This document shows, one piece after another, positions 1,645 to 26,439 of a DNA stretch of 64,000 nt (positions within the stretch are counted from its first letter, which is position 1; each line of letters opens with the position of its first letter). The notes beneath the pieces were generated by a model. It had not been told where the DNA came from. It saw nothing but the letters and a program-made list of their open reading frames with translations, and did no database searches. Source of the stretch: Escherichia phage slur09; sequence record NC_028840.1. The stretch is one strand, 5' to 3'. Both the position numbers and the translations under genes were made by a program.

Positions 1645-2301
1645 TTGGAAAAGTTCTTACAATTATTAACAGTACTGCTCCAAGAAGCGAAAGATCCAGC
1701 ATCGCTTCTTAAACGTCTGCTAACTATCTTAGTTGCTGTCATTATTTTCTTATTTGTTAGTAATACTAGCGAGGTGATGTCGTTCTTAAAGACTTTCTCC
1801 ACGTCTGCGGTTCTACAGGATGTTCAAACTCAAAGGATAGATAACTTTCCTAATGTAGCTAGAGAAAAGAGCATGGTTCTCTTTTCTCAAACGGGTGCAG
1901 ATGCTGTTTTTGTCGTCAAGTATAAACCCGATGCCATTAATGATTATTCTAACATTATTGCATGGGAAAGCAATGCGCAATTAGATAGGGCTGACTTGGC
2001 CGATAAAGCGGTAAATAAAACGTCTGAGCTATATAGACGTCACTTAGAGGGCTTTAACTACGCATCGGATTTAAGTGTAAAAGTAAATAAATACATGGGG
2101 TTAAATATACCTGCGTTTAAGAACGTTACTTTTAATTACATATACACTTGTCCGTATTTCAATCTAAACAATATCTATGCTGGATATATTGGTATTGCTT
2201 GGAAAGATAATCCTGTAGATGCGGCCGATTCTGAGAAATTTAACGAGTATTTAACAAAGCTCTGTTCTCCACAACAGAGATCTTTAGGTAGATCAATATG
2301 A
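1645..2301 (+). CDS. putative holin (TTG start)
   Basis: 218 aa; N-terminal hydrophobic helix LLTILVAVIIFLFV; RBS AGAGGAGG 6 nt upstream; stop overlaps endolysin start (ATGA). Confidence 0.5.
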   Translation: MEKFLQLLTVLLQEAKDPASLLKRLLTILVAVIIFLFVSNTSEVMSFLKTFSTSAVLQDVQTQRIDNFPNVAREKSMVLFSQTGADAVFVVKYKPDAINDYSNIIAWESNAQLDRADLADKAVNKTSELYRRHLEGFNYASDLSVKVNKYMGLNIPAFKNVTFNYIYTCPYFNLNNIYAGYIGIAWKDNPVDAADSEKFNEYLTKLCSPQQRSLGRSI

Positions 2302-2711
2302 GTTTTAAATTTGGTAAAAATAGCGAAAAACAATTAGCTACCGTTAAGCCAGAGCTACAAAAAGTAGCTCGTAGAGCTTTAGAATTATCTCCATATGATT
2401 TCACGATCGTACAGGGTATTCGTACAGTAGCACAAAGTGCCCAGAATATTGCTAATGGTACTTCATTTTTAAAAGATCCTAGTAAAAGCAAGCATATTAC
2501 TGGGGATGCCCTTGATTTTGCTCCATACATTAATGGCAAAATTGATTGGAATGACTTAGAAGCATTTTGGGCAGTTAAAAAGGCTTTTGAACAAGCTGGT
2601 AAAGAACTAGGCATTAAACTTCGTTTTGGTGCTGATTGGAATGCTTCAGGAGATTATCACGACGAAATAAAACGTGGTACCTATGATGGCGGTCATGTCG
2701 AACTAGTTTAA
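2298..2711 (+). CDS. lys: endolysin, L-alanyl-D-glutamate peptidase (M15-like)
   Basis: 137 aa; HITGDALD ... DWN ... GGHVE zinc-binding pattern; same length as T5 endolysin. Confidence 0.85.
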   Translation: MSFKFGKNSEKQLATVKPELQKVARRALELSPYDFTIVQGIRTVAQSAQNIANGTSFLKDPSKSKHITGDALDFAPYINGKIDWNDLEAFWAVKKAFEQAGKELGIKLRFGADWNASGDYHDEIKRGTYDGGHVELV

Positions 2712-2720
2712 TTAATAACT

Positions 2721-2747
2721 GAGGCGGGAATATTCCCGCCTTTTTAG
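2721..2747 (+). terminator. rho-independent terminator after endolysin
   Basis: Perfect hairpin GGCGGGAATATTCCCGCC followed by TTTTT. Confidence 0.7.
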
Positions 2748-2788
2748 GCAAAGGGGGCTTTAATAATTTTTGAAGACAGGAGAAAGCC

Positions 2789-3205
2789 ATGTTTGCAGAA
2801 CTATTCACTATGATGCTGCTAGGTATCTGGAAAATAAGTCTAGTAGTATTCGTTTTAATGATAGTCTTTACTATCATTGCATTAACTACCCGAAATAGCT
2901 TATTAATAAAGGTTATTCACGGACTAGAGTATATAATTATGGGTTCATTCGGCGTTTGTAAATGCAATTGCCATAGAGATACGAAATATTGTTGGTTATG
3001 GATGGAACTAGAGAATCCTATATCCATAGCTTTGGCTGTTTCATTCGGCATGATTCTTATGGCCCTTACTCTAGCATTAATACCTTTGATGTTAGCTGGG
3101 GGAGTTACAGCGTATTTCACCCTTTTCTCCCCGATACTTATGTACTCAATTTACCCAATAACTATGTATCTAGTTAGGAAAAGATTTATACATGCAGTAG
3201 ATTAA
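2789..3205 (+). CDS. polytopic membrane protein, unknown function
   Basis: 138 aa with about four hydrophobic segments; RBS AGGAGAAAG upstream. Confidence 0.4.
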   Translation: MFAELFTMMLLGIWKISLVVFVLMIVFTIIALTTRNSLLIKVIHGLEYIIMGSFGVCKCNCHRDTKYCWLWMELENPISIALAVSFGMILMALTLALIPLMLAGGVTAYFTLFSPILMYSIYPITMYLVRKRFIHAVD

Positions 3206-22013: not shown

Positions 22014-22748
22014 ATGAATAAAGCTATCATTAATTCTTTCCGTGCTTTCCCGCAAATATCCCGCGTCATGATTTGGGATTTAGACGGCACTATCATTAAT
22101 TCTTTCCATCGTGTAGCGCCTTGCTTTGATAGTGAGGGCAATTTAGATTTAAATAAGTATAAAAATGAAGCCTGTAAACATGATTTAATAATGCAAGATA
22201 CCTTGCTACCGCTTGTTGTTTATATGCGTGAGTGTATGAATGATGTAAATACACTAAACATTATTTGCACCGCTCGACTAATGAGCAAATCAGATTATTA
22301 CTTCCTACGCAAACAAGGCTTGCGCGGTCGTGGTAATAGCAATATCCGCGTATTTTCCCGCGATACACTGCATAAATACTTTGAAGCTGATAAGGTTAGC
22401 GAAATATATCACAGCAAAGACGCAGTATATAAAAGTTATTACTTTGAACTATTTAAACAGTTATATCCTAACGCTGATTTTACGATGATTGATGATCATA
22501 AAGGTGTATTAGCGGCGGCGGCATCATACGGATTTAAAACGCTGGACGCTCAAGCTATTAACGATATTCTATCAATCGGTGTTGCAATGATAGGTGAAAC
22601 CTTTATTGATGAATCCCTCGATGATGATAATGATTATCAATTCCTAGCTGACCGCTTAAAGCTATGCTGGGAAGGTATGACCGAGGAAGAACGCGCAGAA
22701 TATAGTTGCAGCCCGCAACAATATATTGAGAAATTAAAAGTTGCGTAA
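22014..22748 (+). CDS. dmp: 5'-deoxyribonucleotidase (HAD-like), Dmp-like
   Basis: 244 aa; HAD motif I VMIWDLDGTII near N-terminus; size matches recalled T5 Dmp. Confidence 0.6.
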   Translation: MNKAIINSFRAFPQISRVMIWDLDGTIINSFHRVAPCFDSEGNLDLNKYKNEACKHDLIMQDTLLPLVVYMRECMNDVNTLNIICTARLMSKSDYYFLRKQGLRGRGNSNIRVFSRDTLHKYFEADKVSEIYHSKDAVYKSYYFELFKQLYPNADFTMIDDHKGVLAAAASYGFKTLDAQAINDILSIGVAMIGETFIDESLDDDNDYQFLADRLKLCWEGMTEEERAEYSCSPQQYIEKLKVA

Positions 22749-22765: not shown

Positions 22766-22802
22766 GTTTCATCCTGCGATTAAAATGGTTGCAGGATGAA
22801 AC
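22766..22802. terminator. bidirectional hairpin between dmp and minus-strand HNH gene
   Basis: 12-bp stem GTTTCATCCTGC/GCAGGATGAAAC. Confidence 0.5.
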
Positions 22803-22921
22803 AATTACCCTGCTAATAGTAACGGGGGTGGCGGTTAGCAGACTAAGTATTCTCCCCCAACCCACTGGACACACCCACGCGTACGTAATCCAAAGAATTT
22901 GGCAAAAGTCAATTAGCGCTA

Positions 22922-23419
22922 TTAAACGGTATTAGCGAACTCACCGTGGAGAATCTCACGAGCTGCACTGAGTTCTGAAATAGCTTCTTCAAGACTTCCG
23001 AAAGTTCCTATATTTACCATATTGCCATCGACTCTGATTCTTGCCCGATATTTTCCCGAGCTTGTAAGAGTTATTCCCTTGACCCCTGTAGACTCATTCT
23101 TCCACCCCGAGGAGTTTTTACCATTCTCTGCGTGTGAAGCTTTACGAAGATTCCCCCACTTATTATTGAAGGGATCTTGGTCTTTATGATCAATGAGAGA
23201 ATCTCCTGGATCTTCTCCCGTAATGTAGAGCCATGCTACACGATGTGCCTTAAATCTCCCGAGTTTGCCCATGTAAAGAGTTATACCATCTTTCTCTCTA
23301 CCGCCTGCTGGCTTACCTTTACGACTTCCTGAGTTCCAGGTAAACATACCGGTTTCAGGATCATAATCAAATTTCTTCTGGTATTCGGCTAAGGGAAGTA
23401 GAGGTTTATGATCTGCCAT
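22922..23419 (-). CDS. HNH homing endonuclease
   Basis: 165 aa; KAHRVAWLYITGEDPGDSLIDHKDQDPFNNKWGNLRKASHAENGKN. Confidence 0.7.
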   Translation of the reverse strand: MADHKPLLPLAEYQKKFDYDPETGMFTWNSGSRKGKPAGGREKDGITLYMGKLGRFKAHRVAWLYITGEDPGDSLIDHKDQDPFNNKWGNLRKASHAENGKNSSGWKNESTGVKGITLTSSGKYRARIRVDGNMVNIGTFGSLEEAISELSAAREILHGEFANTV

Positions 23420-23624
23420 CTATCTTGAATCTCTTCCGCGACGCCCGAGATCCATCCGACCACTTCCGCTCAAACTCCGCACGTTTCTCGTCAAACTTCC
23501 GCTCCCTTTCCGCAATCTCCCGCGTCACTCCCGCAATATATTCCCGATGCTTATTGATTGCCGCAGTCGTCCCGAAAACTCCCGCGAGTATCCCGATAAT
23601 AAAAGCAATTACAATACTAAACAT
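23406..23624 (-). CDS. small membrane-anchored protein
   Basis: 72 aa; N-terminal TM helix then highly charged tail. Confidence 0.45.
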   Translation of the reverse strand: MFSIVIAFIIGILAGVFGTTAAINKHREYIAGVTREIAERERKFDEKRAEFERKWSDGSRASRKRFKIDGRS

Positions 23625-23811
23625 CTAATTCCTTCTCAATTTGCAGAATACGGGTGCTATCACACCGTTGCAGTAGTACTAGCTTTTCTAGCGCAACTTG
23701 TTGTTGTTTTACCTGGGCTTCTAGAGTTTTTAGGCGAATATACACGATACGAGAGGCAATGAGGATTACCCAGACTAATATTACTATTAGTGTAACTGCC
23801 ACTTCCATCAT
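23617..23811 (-). CDS. small membrane-anchored protein
   Basis: 64 aa; TM helix then coiled-coil-like segment. Confidence 0.45.
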   Translation of the reverse strand: MMEVAVTLIVILVWVILIASRIVYIRLKTLEAQVKQQQVALEKLVLLQRCDSTRILQIEKELDV

Positions 23812-23915
23812 TTACGTTTCTCCGATAGTAAGGTTTCAATTCTAGCTAAGTGATTATCTAAAATACACTGCCCAATAATCACAATCCCCAGTAGTGCAAT
23901 AATTACCCATTCCAT
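23808..23915 (-). CDS. 35-aa membrane peptide
   Basis: Hand-translated MEWVIIALLGIVIIGQCILDNHLARIETLLSEKRK; stop overlaps next start; weak RBS. Confidence 0.3.
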   Translation of the reverse strand: MEWVIIALLGIVIIGQCILDNHLARIETLLSEKRK

Positions 23916-24206
23916 TAGATCCACCCCGCCATAGCTGCTAACCAAAAACCTACGAAAATAAAGAATAGGATAGTTCCGAACCCAAAACTATTTATCCAAC
24001 TCTCATACACTTCTCCACGTCTACTCTTTCTTTTGTTTGACATATCTTTCATGCTCCTATATGTGTGGTATTTAAAATATTCTAGCAATTGCAGTGATTA
24101 GTATAATTATTCCCCCTATACCTTCAATAGTGTATTGTGTGGCATCCTGAACTAATTCTGCACTAGGTGCATCTTAAGTAGTGGTGGTTACTAAGGTGGT
24201 TTTTAC

Positions 24207-24440
24207 TTAGAAAACTCCCTCGCATGTACTTCCTTCGGTAAAGTAGCTTACGGGGGCCCAGAAAGATCCATAGGCCATAATTGGTGACACCAAAAACATA
24301 TCCCCTTTCCTATCAAAAACATTAGCCTTATATTTCACATGATCCTGCATATAGTAGGCCTCACATTTAATATCCTCTGGTCCTAACATGGTGCAGCCTG
24401 AAAGAAGTACAACTGCCAGAGCTAAAAATAATTTTTTCAT
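24207..24440 (-). CDS. llp: lytic-conversion lipoprotein (receptor-blocking), Llp-like
   Basis: 77 aa; signal peptide with lipobox LLSGC; divergent from and adjacent to receptor-binding protein gene. Confidence 0.6.
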   Translation of the reverse strand: MKKLFLALAVVLLSGCTMLGPEDIKCEAYYMQDHVKYKANVFDRKGDMFLVSPIMAYGSFWAPVSYFTEGSTCEGVF

Positions 24441-24519
24441 TTACATTCTCCTCTATTTAATTTATAATACTATTATACAAGATTATAGCAATATAGGCAA
24501 ATAAATTTTTGGAGGATAA

Positions 24520-26439
24520 ATGGGCTTTTTTGCGGGAAGACTAAATAATACTCCTACCTTATCTTTAAAGAGGGGTAGTGGTGGGGATATTAATCAACAT
24601 ATTAATCCTGATAATAATACTATATTTCACTCTAATATGCCTCATGTTATTATTACAGAAACCCACTCAGCTAACTTAGCATTAGCTACTAATGAATATT
24701 ACTGGGCCGCCATGCCTAGTAGAATAGTTACTCTACATAATAACGACTCTAACCTAGTTATTCTTACAGAAATAGAATTCACGGATGGTACTAGGCATAT
24801 GATTAACGGTATGAGCATGGGGGTTGGAGTAAAAGCATATGGAACTACTAACCCACAAGTTAGTAGTGGTGGTGGTAATAAAATTCAGATAACCGCTAGT
24901 GCAGACTTATCTCTAGATGTGGGTTATTTTAATACAGGTACTTCTGGAAGCATTGTAGAAAAACTACGTGATGGTACTGGTTGCCAGCACATGTTTGGTT
25001 CCTATGCTATGCGCAGAGGATTTGCTACAGCAGCTATGTATATGGGTAGCGCAGCATTATATAAATCTGCGTGGGATGGTTCTAGTAATGTTGTTGCGGA
25101 TAGAAATACTCTTACAGTTAAAAGTTCTTCGATTAGACATCCTGGATCACGAAGTCTAGGATTCGATGCTATTTACGTAAGAGGCAGATCTTGTCCTAGA
25201 ATAGTATATGGCTATAATGGTCCTAACCATACCACCGCTGGTAGAGTACAAGGTGTGGCTAGTTCAGCTGCTGAAATGGTGAAGAACTATAACTCTACTG
25301 ACCCAAGTTCTATGGCCTGGGCGGTTGGGTTTGCTAGAGCTGCACCTCATGGGTACGCTTATTGGGAAGGTATGTCTGATCCTAATAACGGTCCTGGTGG
25401 TCCCATTGGTATATATAGTGAGAGCTTAGGAGTTACTCCTAAAAAAGTTACCTGGTATGTAACTAATCTAAGGTATACTGGAAGTGGTTTTACTGTTGGC
25501 ACAGATTTATTCAAAGGTTCTGATATAAAGATAAGTCCTAACGACTTTACTATCAGAGGAGTTAACTTATCTACGACTTCATGGAAGTTTATTAACTTTG
25601 TTCAGCCGGGATATAACCCAGGAAGTAGAGCTGATATTAGAAATATAGGTAATAATGTTAGTAGTAGTTCTAATTCTACTGGTGTGAATGGTATAGCTAC
25701 TTTTGCCGTACCTGTTACTAATGGTAGTAATGCTCCGCTGTTTAAGGGTGGTAACGTGGGTGGTCTTACTAACAGCACTGTTAGTATTTATAGTTTTATG
25801 CCTTCCAGTTCTTGGTACGCTCAGAGTACCCCCCCAAAAATAGGAAATAAATATGGGGATGTTTGGAGTGAAAGTAATATACCTCTACGTTTAATAGCCG
25901 GTAGTGCTTCTGCAACATTATCAGGAAATGTGGTATTTAGTAGTGGTAGTTCAGTTCATTTAACTACCATGGGATTAGGTATCCAAAGTGCGAGAGATGG
26001 AGCCATTGTATGCACAATGGAGTTCCTAGATGATACCTGGTTATCCGCAGGGGGTATAGGCTGCTTTAACCCTAATGAGATACTTAACAGAGGTGCTACT
26101 ACAGGTGATAGTCGTTTTAGGATTTCTAGTAACGCAGTTAGTAAAAAGTTACACCAAATATTATCCTTACCCTCAGGTAAATATGTTCCATTTTTAACTA
26201 TTAAAGGTACTGCTGTTAATGCTACCGGGGGTGGCGGAGCAATGTTTACTCCTACTGCTTTCTGGGTGTCCAGTCTATATGGTGGGAATGCTCAAACTGG
26301 ATATTATACTATAACCTACTATTTGAAAAATGACGGAAATGGTAATGTTAGTGTGTGGCTAAACGCTTCTGTAAGTAATGTGGTTGGACTAAAAGCTTGC
26401 CTACCTAATGTAAAAATAACAATTCAACGCCTTACCTAA
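24520..26439 (+). CDS. oad: receptor-binding tail protein pb5-like
   Basis: 639 aa (T5 pb5 about 640 aa); first gene of late operon next to llp; RBS GGAGG. Confidence 0.6.

Follow-up and report, generated by a model that had tools for sequence, protein, structure and literature searches.

Four overlapping micro-genes for predicted membrane proteins behind llp in a T5-like phage, with a possible role in exclusion

On the minus strand of Escherichia phage slur09, the gene of the receptor-blocking lipoprotein Llp is followed by a run of very short genes. The locus raises the question of what these genes do: whether they are transcribed together with llp, and whether their products act at the cell envelope, in superinfection exclusion or in the timing of lysis. 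We analysed this question in a stretch of 64,000 nucleotides (NC_028840.1), the whole of which is called the window below.

Layout and transcription of the region

A sequence-only reading of the window had named three overlapping ORFs on the minus strand (23808-23915, 23617-23811 and 23406-23624), and all three were found at exactly these coordinates. It had counted "at least three" micro-genes; three are present, but a fourth, orf1 (23915-24043), lies between llp and orf2 and had been overlooked. The run had also been placed directly downstream of llp, which did not hold, since a non-coding spacer of 163 nt intervenes. The features of the region are as follows.

24472-24500, minus strand: llp promoter-like site, TTGCCT-17-TATAAT (consensus scan)
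24440-24468, plus strand: pb5 promoter-like site, divergent, overlapping the llp promoter-like site (consensus scan)
24207-24440, minus strand: llp, receptor-blocking lytic conversion lipoprotein precursor of the FhuA type, 91% identity to T5 Llp
24044-24206, minus strand: llp-orf1 spacer, non-coding, 163 nt (terminator scan, RNA folding, alignment)
23915-24043, minus strand: orf1, 42 aa, equivalent to T5.159/ORF148
23808-23915, minus strand: orf2, 35 aa, ATG start, equivalent to T5.160/ORF149
23617-23811, minus strand: orf3, 64 aa, equivalent to T5.161/ORF150
23406-23624, minus strand: orf4, 72 aa, equivalent to T5.162/ORF151
22922-23419, minus strand: free-standing HNH homing endonuclease gene (Pfam HNH_3, PHROG 99)
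22766-22802, minus strand: hairpin and U-rich stretch, probable terminator (RNA fold, homology to T5)

Neighbouring genes overlap by 1 nt (orf1/orf2, as TAATG), 4 nt (orf2/orf3), 8 nt (orf3/orf4) and 14 nt (orf4/HNH). The llp gene matched PHROG 1119 (E 1.3e-19) and has a visible lipobox, LLSGC.

The HNH endonuclease expected after the micro-genes was confirmed: the product of 22922-23419 scored 42.1 bits against Pfam HNH_3 (PF13392; cut-off 24.8, E 6.6e-11) and matched PHROG 99 (E 3e-54). Alignment with T5 and Bas32, both of which lack the gene, showed it to be an insertion of ~500 bp that replaces the last 15 codons of orf4. We found it in five loci at 71-98% identity, while other loci carried different HNH types at nearby sites, with presence, type and position all variable. 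It resembles the heg genes, which encode free-standing homing endonucleases of the HNH_3 type in T5-like phages, with no notable difference. The HNH gene is a mobile passenger and stands outside the function of the membrane-protein set.

The promoter-like sites of llp and pb5 matched the consensus at 10 and 11 of 12 positions, respectively, and they are arranged in the way that the T5 records X75922, AY587007 and NC_005859 show for the promoters of llp and oad. A consensus scan of the llp-orf1 spacer, allowing loops of up to 8 nt, found no terminator-like element, and the fold of the spacer RNA was not more stable than that of shuffled controls (z +0.58). The first strong hairpin downstream of llp is located 3' of the HNH gene, at 22766-22802, facing the 3' end of dmp. 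It has a 12-bp stem (GUUUCAUCCUGC / GCAGGAUGAAAC) and a 13-nt loop (RNA fold z -2.6); the consensus scan overlooked it because its loop is longer than 8 nt. This hairpin has homologues in T5, annotated as "putative rho-independent terminator" in AY587007 and as a repeat_region in X75922, and is the probable terminator of an llp-orf1-4-HNH unit. In the T5 records the llp promoter upstream and the hairpin downstream are the sole annotated signals.

The last ~40 nt of the spacer (up to ~24081) are kept across phages with differing llp modules, and many megablast matches stop at query position 1382, which is window position 24081. We also observed a weak promoter-like site inside the spacer (24127-24100, 9/12 consensus); T5 has a weaker version of it, and one relative (L022) lacks it. 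Phages of the BtuB type have a TGnTATATT-like element in the spacer, which is not conserved (for example, it reads TGTACT in Bas33). A separate promoter for orf1-4 may therefore be present in the spacer.

In RNA-seq counts of Bas33 at 20 min, analysed unstranded, the two replicates gave 219 and 127 TPM for the llp analogue, 162 and 137 for the orf2 paralogue, 462 and 408 for orf3, and 525 and 444 for the HNH gene; orf4 was low (22 and 13), and the two shortest genes, orf1 and orf2, were near zero (PMC13250531 Dataset S1). Since two other Bas33 genes below 150 bp, bas33_0009 and bas33_0010, were likewise near zero in the same data, we tentatively attribute the values of orf1 and orf2 to a counting artefact. 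The higher TPM of orf3 and the HNH gene relative to the llp analogue could reflect an additional promoter. When second-step transfer was blocked with daunorubicin, the llp-region genes of Bas33 fell to about zero, and dmp and A1 remained on (PMC13250531).

The proposal that the micro-genes share the llp transcription unit is thus upheld in part. In its favour are the lack of a terminator between llp and orf1 in the scan, the hairpin after the HNH gene and the llp-like levels in Bas33; on the other hand, a separate promoter is possible and the counts were unstranded.

Coding, conservation and membrane location

The micro-genes are under selection for their protein products. In comparisons of 18-27 distinct sequences taken from phages of this kind, dN/dS was 0.12 for orf1, 0.12 for orf2, 0.32 for orf3 (0.18 for its tail) and 0.22 for orf4, compared to 0.36-3.1 for shifted frames of the same DNA and to 0.07 and 0.09 for the known genes dmp and llp. 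Therefore, orf1-4 are real genes, and only their annotated frames are under purifying selection.

From llp (or its analogue) to dmp or the terminal repeat, all 32 related loci had these genes in the same order. The 1-, 4- and 8-nt overlaps were kept in 25-27 of 31 loci, the TAATG overlap of orf1 and orf2 in 27, and 1-nt overlaps persisted even where a gene had been gained or lost. The four genes are translationally coupled. Gene number does vary among the loci, with orf2 duplicated or orf3 lost. Genes orf1 and orf4 were found only in T5-like phages, in ~440 genomes, and are core to the whole T5-like subfamily (Markadamsvirinae).

The cluster is present in all T5-like phages and stays constant while the llp/pb5 receptor module next to it is swapped: orf1 is 81-100% conserved beside pb5 types that are 23-33% identical to one another, with the break in homology at ~24081.

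When 5.8 billion proteins were searched by word index, orf3 and orf4 had no homologue outside T5-like phages, and an exhaustive profile search with orf4 over 1.84 billion representatives returned T5-like phage sequences only. None of the four had an above-threshold match in Pfam, NCBIfam or PDB sequence searches. Among distant Demerecviridae, a Klebsiella phage has at the same position two proteins with an N-terminal TM helix and a coil, without sequence similarity, and the corresponding region is laid out differently in a Proteus phage and in a Vibrio phage.

Each micro-protein matched a PHROG over the whole profile, and all four PHROGs are labelled "unknown function". The protein of orf1 has a basic N-terminus (KRKSRRGE) followed by a C-terminal TM helix that carries a small-xxx-small motif, and its GFWLAAMAG motif is conserved; it matched PHROG 8596 (E 1e-31), is 95% identical to the T5 gene product and occurs in 446 phage records. 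Longer versions of orf1 (57 aa from TTG 24088, as in AY587007 and AY692264, or a start at ATG 24052) were rejected, as the extension is not conserved: several relatives have ACG in place of the upstream ATG, and a deletion affects the extension in one locus.

The orf2 protein consists of an N-terminal TM helix and a short tail, with GQCILDNHLARIE conserved (PHROG 6369, E 9e-26; 94% identical to T5; 189 records). In orf3 the N-terminal TM helix is followed by a coiled-coil-like tail of five heptads with LLVQLLQDIIL at the a/d positions (PHROG 5851, E 2e-30; 77% identical to T5; 192 records); orf3 is missing from some loci. AlphaFold2 modelled it as one continuous helix over residues 2-63 (pLDDT 88). 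The orf4 protein, 100% identical to SLUR09_00044 of phage slur09, has an N-terminal TM helix with invariant G11, G15, G18 and A22, then a highly charged helix (PHROG 6447, E 3e-43; 87% identical to T5; 442 records), and was modelled as one continuous helix over residues 2-69 (pLDDT 70). It has 72 aa compared to 81 aa in T5, because the HNH gene displaced its last 15 codons.

Hydropathy agrees with the earlier prediction of membrane anchoring, with one TM helix per protein. The Kyte-Doolittle 19-residue windows reached 2.1-2.8 for orf1-4 and 2.3-2.8 for the three ORFs first named, each of which shows the expected N-terminal hydrophobic window and, after it, a tail that is charged or patterned in heptads. 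Every one of T5.159-T5.162 carries the RefSeq remark "contains single transmembrane domain". We found no lipobox in orf1-4.

The orf3 protein has no basic residues N-terminal of its TM helix and has a basic C-flank, so a C-in orientation is favoured. By the positive-inside rule, from which the topology was derived, the charges suggest that the soluble tails are in the cytoplasm rather than in the periplasm or outer envelope. The rule is known to fail for some bitopic phage proteins, for example, lambda Rz.

A possible exclusion function and its alternatives

In the CRISPRi-ART knock-down screen of T5, T5.158-T5.162 were all "Not Fit" (PMC11879866 source data), and therefore we take orf1-4 to be accessory and dispensable in the laboratory. 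As a joint claim, it is very probable that these are real, accessory genes whose products sit in the membrane. Their function is a more tentative matter. By analogy, and with low confidence, we propose that orf1-4 serve in exclusion at the inner membrane.

Once second-step DNA transfer has taken place, the llp early promoter probably drives transcription as far as the hairpin at 22766-22802, and each protein probably places one TM helix in the cytoplasmic membrane. The orf1 protein is probably tail-anchored, its basic N-terminus being cytoplasmic; the orf2-4 proteins are probably oriented N-out/C-in with cytoplasmic helical tails. The four may form a single small, hetero-oligomeric bundle of helices, as suggested by the coupled translation and by small-xxx-small motifs in the universal members orf1 and orf4. 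Such a complex would be an accessory protection of the infected cell, most likely in the form of a block on DNA entry by a second phage, independent of the outer-membrane receptor which that phage uses. It would act alongside the block by Llp, which is receptor-specific.

The only direct functional hint is the operon shared with llp, a proven exclusion gene. The micro-proteins are not helpers of Llp, because the cluster is kept whatever the receptor module and because llp cloned by itself suffices for the receptor block (PMC4728585). Naively, cytoplasmic tails would be unexpected for a blocker of an incoming tail or tape-measure channel acting from the periplasmic side, and this argues against exclusion.

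A more specific version, which we rather doubt, is that the four micro-proteins form one complex that is a second, receptor-independent exclusion layer of T5-like phages. The complex might stop the tape-measure/DNA channel of an incoming T5-like phage at the cytoplasmic membrane; alternatively, it might jam TonB-ExbBD, which energises transport through all the known receptors of the subfamily. A second layer of this kind would explain why the cluster stays fixed despite the exchange of llp/pb5 modules.

Among the other explanations, host takeover survives best, even if we judge it rather unlikely. The micro-proteins would insert beside a bitopic or polytopic host complex of the inner membrane and either inactivate or readjust it, with TonB-ExbBD, the FtsQLB divisome, FtsH and the Psp stress response as candidate targets. 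Small bacterial membrane proteins such as AcrZ and MgrB do modulate membrane complexes, and TonB-ExbBD energises FhuA, BtuB and FepA, transporters that are receptors of T5-like phages. The receptors known for the subfamily all belong to the TonB-dependent transporters (PMC8594841), a fact we count for host takeover together with the predicted cytoplasmic tails, the dispensability in rich-medium infection, the conservation whatever the receptor type, and sub-threshold matches to FtsL, PspB and LapA, families with a TM helix and a short coil. Nevertheless, these matches fall far under the curated cut-offs, homologues were not found outside T5-like phages, and no target is indicated.

Quite unlikely is a counter-defence against a membrane-acting abortive-infection system of the host or a prophage that is absent from laboratory K-12. 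It would account for genes dispensable on laboratory E. coli yet universally conserved under purifying selection, and the variable gene number is typical of arms-race loci. Still, the sequences have diverged little (80-100% identity for orf1 and orf2), the dN/dS of 0.12 gives no sign of diversifying selection, and no link to a known defence system is available.

A role in lysis timing, as a holin, antiholin or spanin-like protein, was the other function suggested at the outset, and we consider it very unlikely. Small size and a single TM helix fit it, as do the coiled-coil tail of orf3, reminiscent of an i-spanin, and the lipoprotein gene llp in the same unit. However, the window has a separate cassette 20 kb away, at 1645-2711, with a holin (PHROG 860, E 2e-78) and an endolysin (PHROG 465), and both inner- and outer-membrane spanins of T5-like phages have been described inside the lysis cassette (PMC4342426). 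In Pfam and PHROGs, orf1-4 matched no holin family; they are not encoded with the endolysin, and what they share with holins is at least one TM helix. The orf3 tail has ~40 aa compared to about 100 aa or more in i-spanins, and its charges favour C-in over the N-in/C-out orientation. An o-spanin partner would be a lipoprotein devoted to lysis and encoded in the lysis cassette, but the only lipoprotein here is Llp, a FhuA blocker of solved function (PMC9586334). Expression also tracks the early llp promoter and not the lysis genes.

A structural or assembly role, indicated by the names "tail assembly protein" and "tail fiber protein" given to orf3 in some records and UniRef clusters, which look like propagated automatic annotation, is effectively refuted: the PHROGs say "unknown function", the genes follow the early llp promoter and are encoded on the other strand than the late structural genes next to them, and the products are hydrophobic proteins of 35-72 aa whose knock-down in T5 had no fitness effect, unlike that of an essential assembly factor.

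If the exclusion reading or that of a host-membrane takeover device is true, the cluster matters for the design of T5-like phage cocktails and bears on how T5 DNA passes across the inner membrane.

Comparison with known systems

The existence of orf1-4 is already known. T5 has the same genes, order and overlaps at the same place between llp and the terminal-repeat boundary, with a full 81-aa orf4 and without an HNH gene at this site. They have been in GenBank since 1994 as orf1-4 (X75922, Decker 1994), and are also named ORF148-151 (AY587007), T5p155-158 (AY692264) and T5.159-T5.162 (NC_005859), and are annotated as single-TM proteins in the T5 reference. In the text of the papers searched we found no mention of T5.159-162; the downstream ORFs are not discussed in the Llp structure paper (PMC9586334) or the DT57C paper, and a T5 toxicity screen covered T5.002-T5.017 only.

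Our addition is modest: orf1 and orf4 as subfamily core, purifying selection, tight translational coupling, independence of receptor type, probable cytoplasmic tails and separateness from the lysis cassette.

In FtsL, PspB and the LapA domain, a TM helix continues into a short coiled helix, as in the micro-proteins. The scores were all below the cut-offs: 20.4 bits compared to 28 for LapA_dom (E 5e-4), 11.5 compared to 51.7 for PspB (E 0.28), and 13.1 and 14.8 compared to 42.45 and 50 for FtsL (E 0.017 and 0.07). The resemblance is one of composition and architecture, not homology.

T4 Imm, HK97 gp15 and P22 SieA are small exclusion proteins of the cytoplasmic membrane, dispensable in single infection. 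Sequence and profile searches (PHROGs, Pfam) found no similarity of orf1-4 to known exclusion protein families, T4 Spackle among them, or to any other family of known function; only llp had an exclusion-family match, to PHROG 1119. The likeness is one we propose, and it has a limit: Imm, gp15 and SieA are single proteins of demonstrated function, whereas orf1-4 are four coupled micro-proteins.

A known system close by in the genome itself is that of the Llp/Cor lipoproteins, as llp shares its unit with orf1-4, is made early and is likewise accessory ("Not Fit"). The structure of T5 Llp bound to FhuA, with its receptor-blocking function, has been solved (PMC9586334). Conversely, T5 Llp is a lipoprotein on the periplasm-facing side of the outer membrane, specific for one receptor and swapped together with pb5, while the proteins of orf1-4 are predicted to be in the inner membrane and stay constant.

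Layout and identity of the small genes

The window holds a T5-like (Tequintavirus) genome, reversed in orientation with respect to the T5 reference.

Features of the llp locus
22014-22748, plus strand: dmp, convergent, beyond the hairpin
22766-22802, minus strand: hairpin, 12-bp stem
22922-23419, minus strand: HNH endonuclease gene, 165 aa
23406-23624, minus strand: orf4, 72 aa
23617-23811, minus strand: orf3, 64 aa
23808-23915, minus strand: orf2, 35 aa
23915-24043, minus strand: orf1, 42 aa, basic N-terminus, C-terminal TM helix
24044-24206, minus strand: llp-orf1 spacer, 163 nt, non-coding
24207-24440, minus strand: llp, lipoprotein precursor
24520-26439, plus strand: pb5, on the other side of llp

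Overlapping divergent promoter-like sites separate llp from pb5. The sequence-only reading had proposed at least three micro-genes directly after llp, followed by an HNH endonuclease. Its coordinates for orf2, orf3 and orf4 were exact and the endonuclease gene is present; the run of micro-genes exists, but with four members rather than three (orf1 was overlooked), and the 163-nt spacer sets it apart from llp.

The four genes are orf1-orf4 of GenBank X75922, the entry of the 1994 llp paper, also listed as ORF148-151 (AY587007), T5p155-158 (AY692264) and T5.159-T5.162 (NC_005859, where each carries the note "contains single transmembrane domain"). As a finding, they are already known and ordinary. 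Escherichia phage slur09 proteins matched orf3 and orf4 at 100% identity. The genes fall, in order, into PHROGs 8596, 6369, 5851 and 6447, whose labels give nothing past "membrane protein", and no function was reported for them in the literature searched. The names 'tail assembly protein' and 'tail fiber protein', given to orf3 in some database records, look like a misannotation passed on from entry to entry.

Conservation and variation of the cluster

For 32 related loci (nine annotated records and 23 IMG/VR contigs), pairwise Nei-Gojobori dN/dS was 0.12 for orf1, 0.12 for orf2, 0.22 for orf4 and 0.32 overall for orf3 (0.18 in the tail, 0.59 in the TM segment), compared to 0.07 and 0.09 for the controls dmp and llp and 0.36-3.1 for shifted frames of the same DNA. 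The stop/start overlaps (TAATG, ATGA and 8 nt) were conserved in 25-27 of 31 loci, and where orf3 is absent orf2 and orf4 overlap by 1 nt. The four are real, conserved genes. A longer orf1 from an upstream ATG was rejected; the 42-aa start is correct, since several phages have ACG in place of that codon and a deletion affects this stretch in one locus.

Among 50,697 phage records, tblastn found orf1 in 446 and orf4 in 442, counts that fit the ~440 records with dmp at least 80% identical, i.e., the subfamily Markadamsvirinae; dmp overall was present in 907 records, Vibrio, Klebsiella and Proteus relatives included. An exhaustive profile search with orf4 over 1.84 billion representative proteins returned five clusters, all of the same family, while a word-indexed search of 5.8 billion proteins with orf3 and orf4 returned nothing outside T5-like sequences. 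By these counts and searches, the cluster is core to this subfamily and restricted to it. Window-type orf2 and orf3 were found in 189 and 192 of the phage records, and the minimal conserved set is orf1, orf2 and orf4. The most widely conserved members were orf1 and orf4. Two entries, 'Listeria phage LM 4-11-1' and 'Campylobacter phage C13', contain near-identical T5-like sequence (dmp 98.8% identical) and are probably mislabelled or contaminated.

We observed that orf3 was missing in several compared loci (L010, L011, L013, L023, L025, L026, L027), which carry a variant orf2 tail (RIERKLRGDK/REYK vs RIETLLSEKRK); this hints that the tail co-varies with orf3. Other loci (L004, 2242-2397; L008, 4999-5154; L015; L030), with phages Bas31 and Bas33 among the carriers, have a fifth small gene (51 aa), located between orf1 and orf2 and overlapping each by 1 nt. 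It is a tandem orf2 paralogue with a 16-residue insertion: it has the N- and C-terminal motifs of orf2 and matches PHROG 6369 (E 1e-15).

Alignment with T5 and Bas32 showed the HNH gene to be a ~500-bp insertion in the 3' end of orf4 (22913-23430), which replaces the last 15 codons (REFRP...SMR) with the six-residue KIDGRS and leaves GCGCTAA, a remnant of the old orf4 stop, just downstream of the HNH stop. Related loci differ in this respect: some carry a window-type HNH gene (71-98% identity), some have HNH genes of other types in the vicinity, some have one in the llp-orf1 interval, and some lack any. The HNH gene is a mobile passenger. The C-terminal tail of orf4 seems dispensable, since relatives show at least four alternatives.

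The pb5 protein is 65% identical to that of T5 in FhuA-type loci and just 23-33% identical in non-FhuA-type loci, where llp is non-homologous; orf1 identity was 81-100% across all loci, whatever the neighbouring pb5 type. Many megablast matches ended at query position 1382 (window 24081), ~40 nt upstream of orf1. This point is a recombination boundary: the receptor module on one side of it is swappable, the cluster on the other side fixed. Since cloned llp by itself blocks the receptor (PMC4728585), orf1-orf4 are not Llp helpers. The ~40 nt before orf1 (~24044-24081) are conserved as DNA even among phages with unrelated llp modules and hold a TAnnAT hexamer (T1, A2 and T6 kept) and an AGGAG ribosome-binding site; the stretch may act as a leader, a processing site or a weak promoter. 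In phage BB1 (L005, 2169-2821), a tandem pair of different genes, both annotated as receptor-blocking, precedes the small-ORF cluster.

Transcription

No terminator-like site was found between llp and orf1, and shuffled sequence was at least as structured as the spacer RNA (z +0.58). After the HNH gene, the hairpin at 22766-22802, followed by a U-rich tail (region z -2.6), is homologous to a terminator annotated in T5, and the llp promoter is the only promoter annotated upstream in T5 records. All four genes are probably carried on the llp transcript. Homology with the T5 annotation puts the boundary of the long terminal repeat at ~22871, ~50 nt past the HNH stop, which would place the hairpin inside the repeat; a G-rich/C-rich pairing (~22825-22885) sits right at this boundary.

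Phage Bas33 (HildyBeyeler) has the layout of the window plus the added orf2 paralogue. In its RNA-seq at 20 min, TPM values in replicates 1 and 2 were 219 and 127 for the llp analogue, 162 and 137 for the orf2 paralogue, 462 and 408 for orf3, 22 and 13 for orf4, and 525 and 444 for HNH, with about 1 for orf1 and orf2 (129 and 108 bp) (PMC13250531, Dataset S1). These counts, analysed unstranded, make co-transcription with llp no more than plausible. We read the near-zero orf1 and orf2 values as a counting artefact, since near-zero TPM was also seen for two further genes, both below 150 bp and located within a strongly expressed region. The Bas33 orf4 (246 bp) was 10- to 20-fold below the genes on either side; read length is not an obvious cause here, in contrast to the genes below 150 bp. 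Daunorubicin, shown in that study to stop infection during two-step DNA delivery, brought the llp analogue, orf1-orf4, the orf2 paralogue and HNH to ~0, while the pre-early dmp and A1 were still expressed (PMC13250531). This pattern fits a cluster outside the first-step-transfer DNA.

Topology and possible function

All four proteins contain a single hydrophobic segment (Kyte-Doolittle 2.1-2.8). With five Lys/Arg in the N-flank and nothing beyond the C-terminal helix, orf1 is predicted to be tail-anchored and N-in; orf2, orf3 and orf4, whose helix begins at the very N-terminus (ME.., MME.., MF..) and whose C-flank contains 3-4 Lys/Arg, are predicted to be N-out/C-in. Along the orf3 tail, a 3-4 heptad pattern runs unbroken through five heptads, and AF2 gave a single continuous helix for orf3 (pLDDT 88) and for orf4 (pLDDT 70). 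The invariant G11, G15, G18 and A22 of orf4 and the conserved GFWLAAMAG of orf1 are putative helix-packing motifs of the two universal members. Searches of Pfam, NCBIfam and PDB gave sub-threshold architectural matches only (LapA domain, FtsL, PspB). All four are probably inner-membrane proteins.

In a transcriptome-wide dCas13d knock-down of T5, llp (T5.158) and T5.159-T5.162 were all "Not Fit" (PMC11879866); orf1-orf4 are accessory. From operon context and conservation pattern, we tentatively propose that they would form a small hetero-oligomeric inner-membrane complex giving the infected cell receptor-independent protection (probability about 0.25-0.3). Modulation of a host inner-membrane machine is somewhat less likely, and a counter-defence role is doubtful. 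Lysis timing, raised in the sequence-only reading together with exclusion, is quite improbable, because a holin of 218 aa (PHROG 860) and an endolysin of 137 aa (PHROG 465) are encoded by overlapping genes elsewhere in the window (1645-2711) and T5-like spanins have been described within the holin-endolysin cassette (PMC4342426). A multi-TM protein of 138 aa (PHROG 5944) comes after the endolysin and extends this lysis cassette to 1645-3205.

At the corresponding position of a distant locus, in Klebsiella phage vB_Kpn_K7_rec19 (L033, 4762-5532), we found no lipoprotein and two proteins of 74 and 180 aa with no sequence similarity to orf1-orf4. Divergent from the receptor-binding gene and each with a TM helix at the N-terminus and a coiled region after it, this pair may be functional analogues of orf1-orf4.
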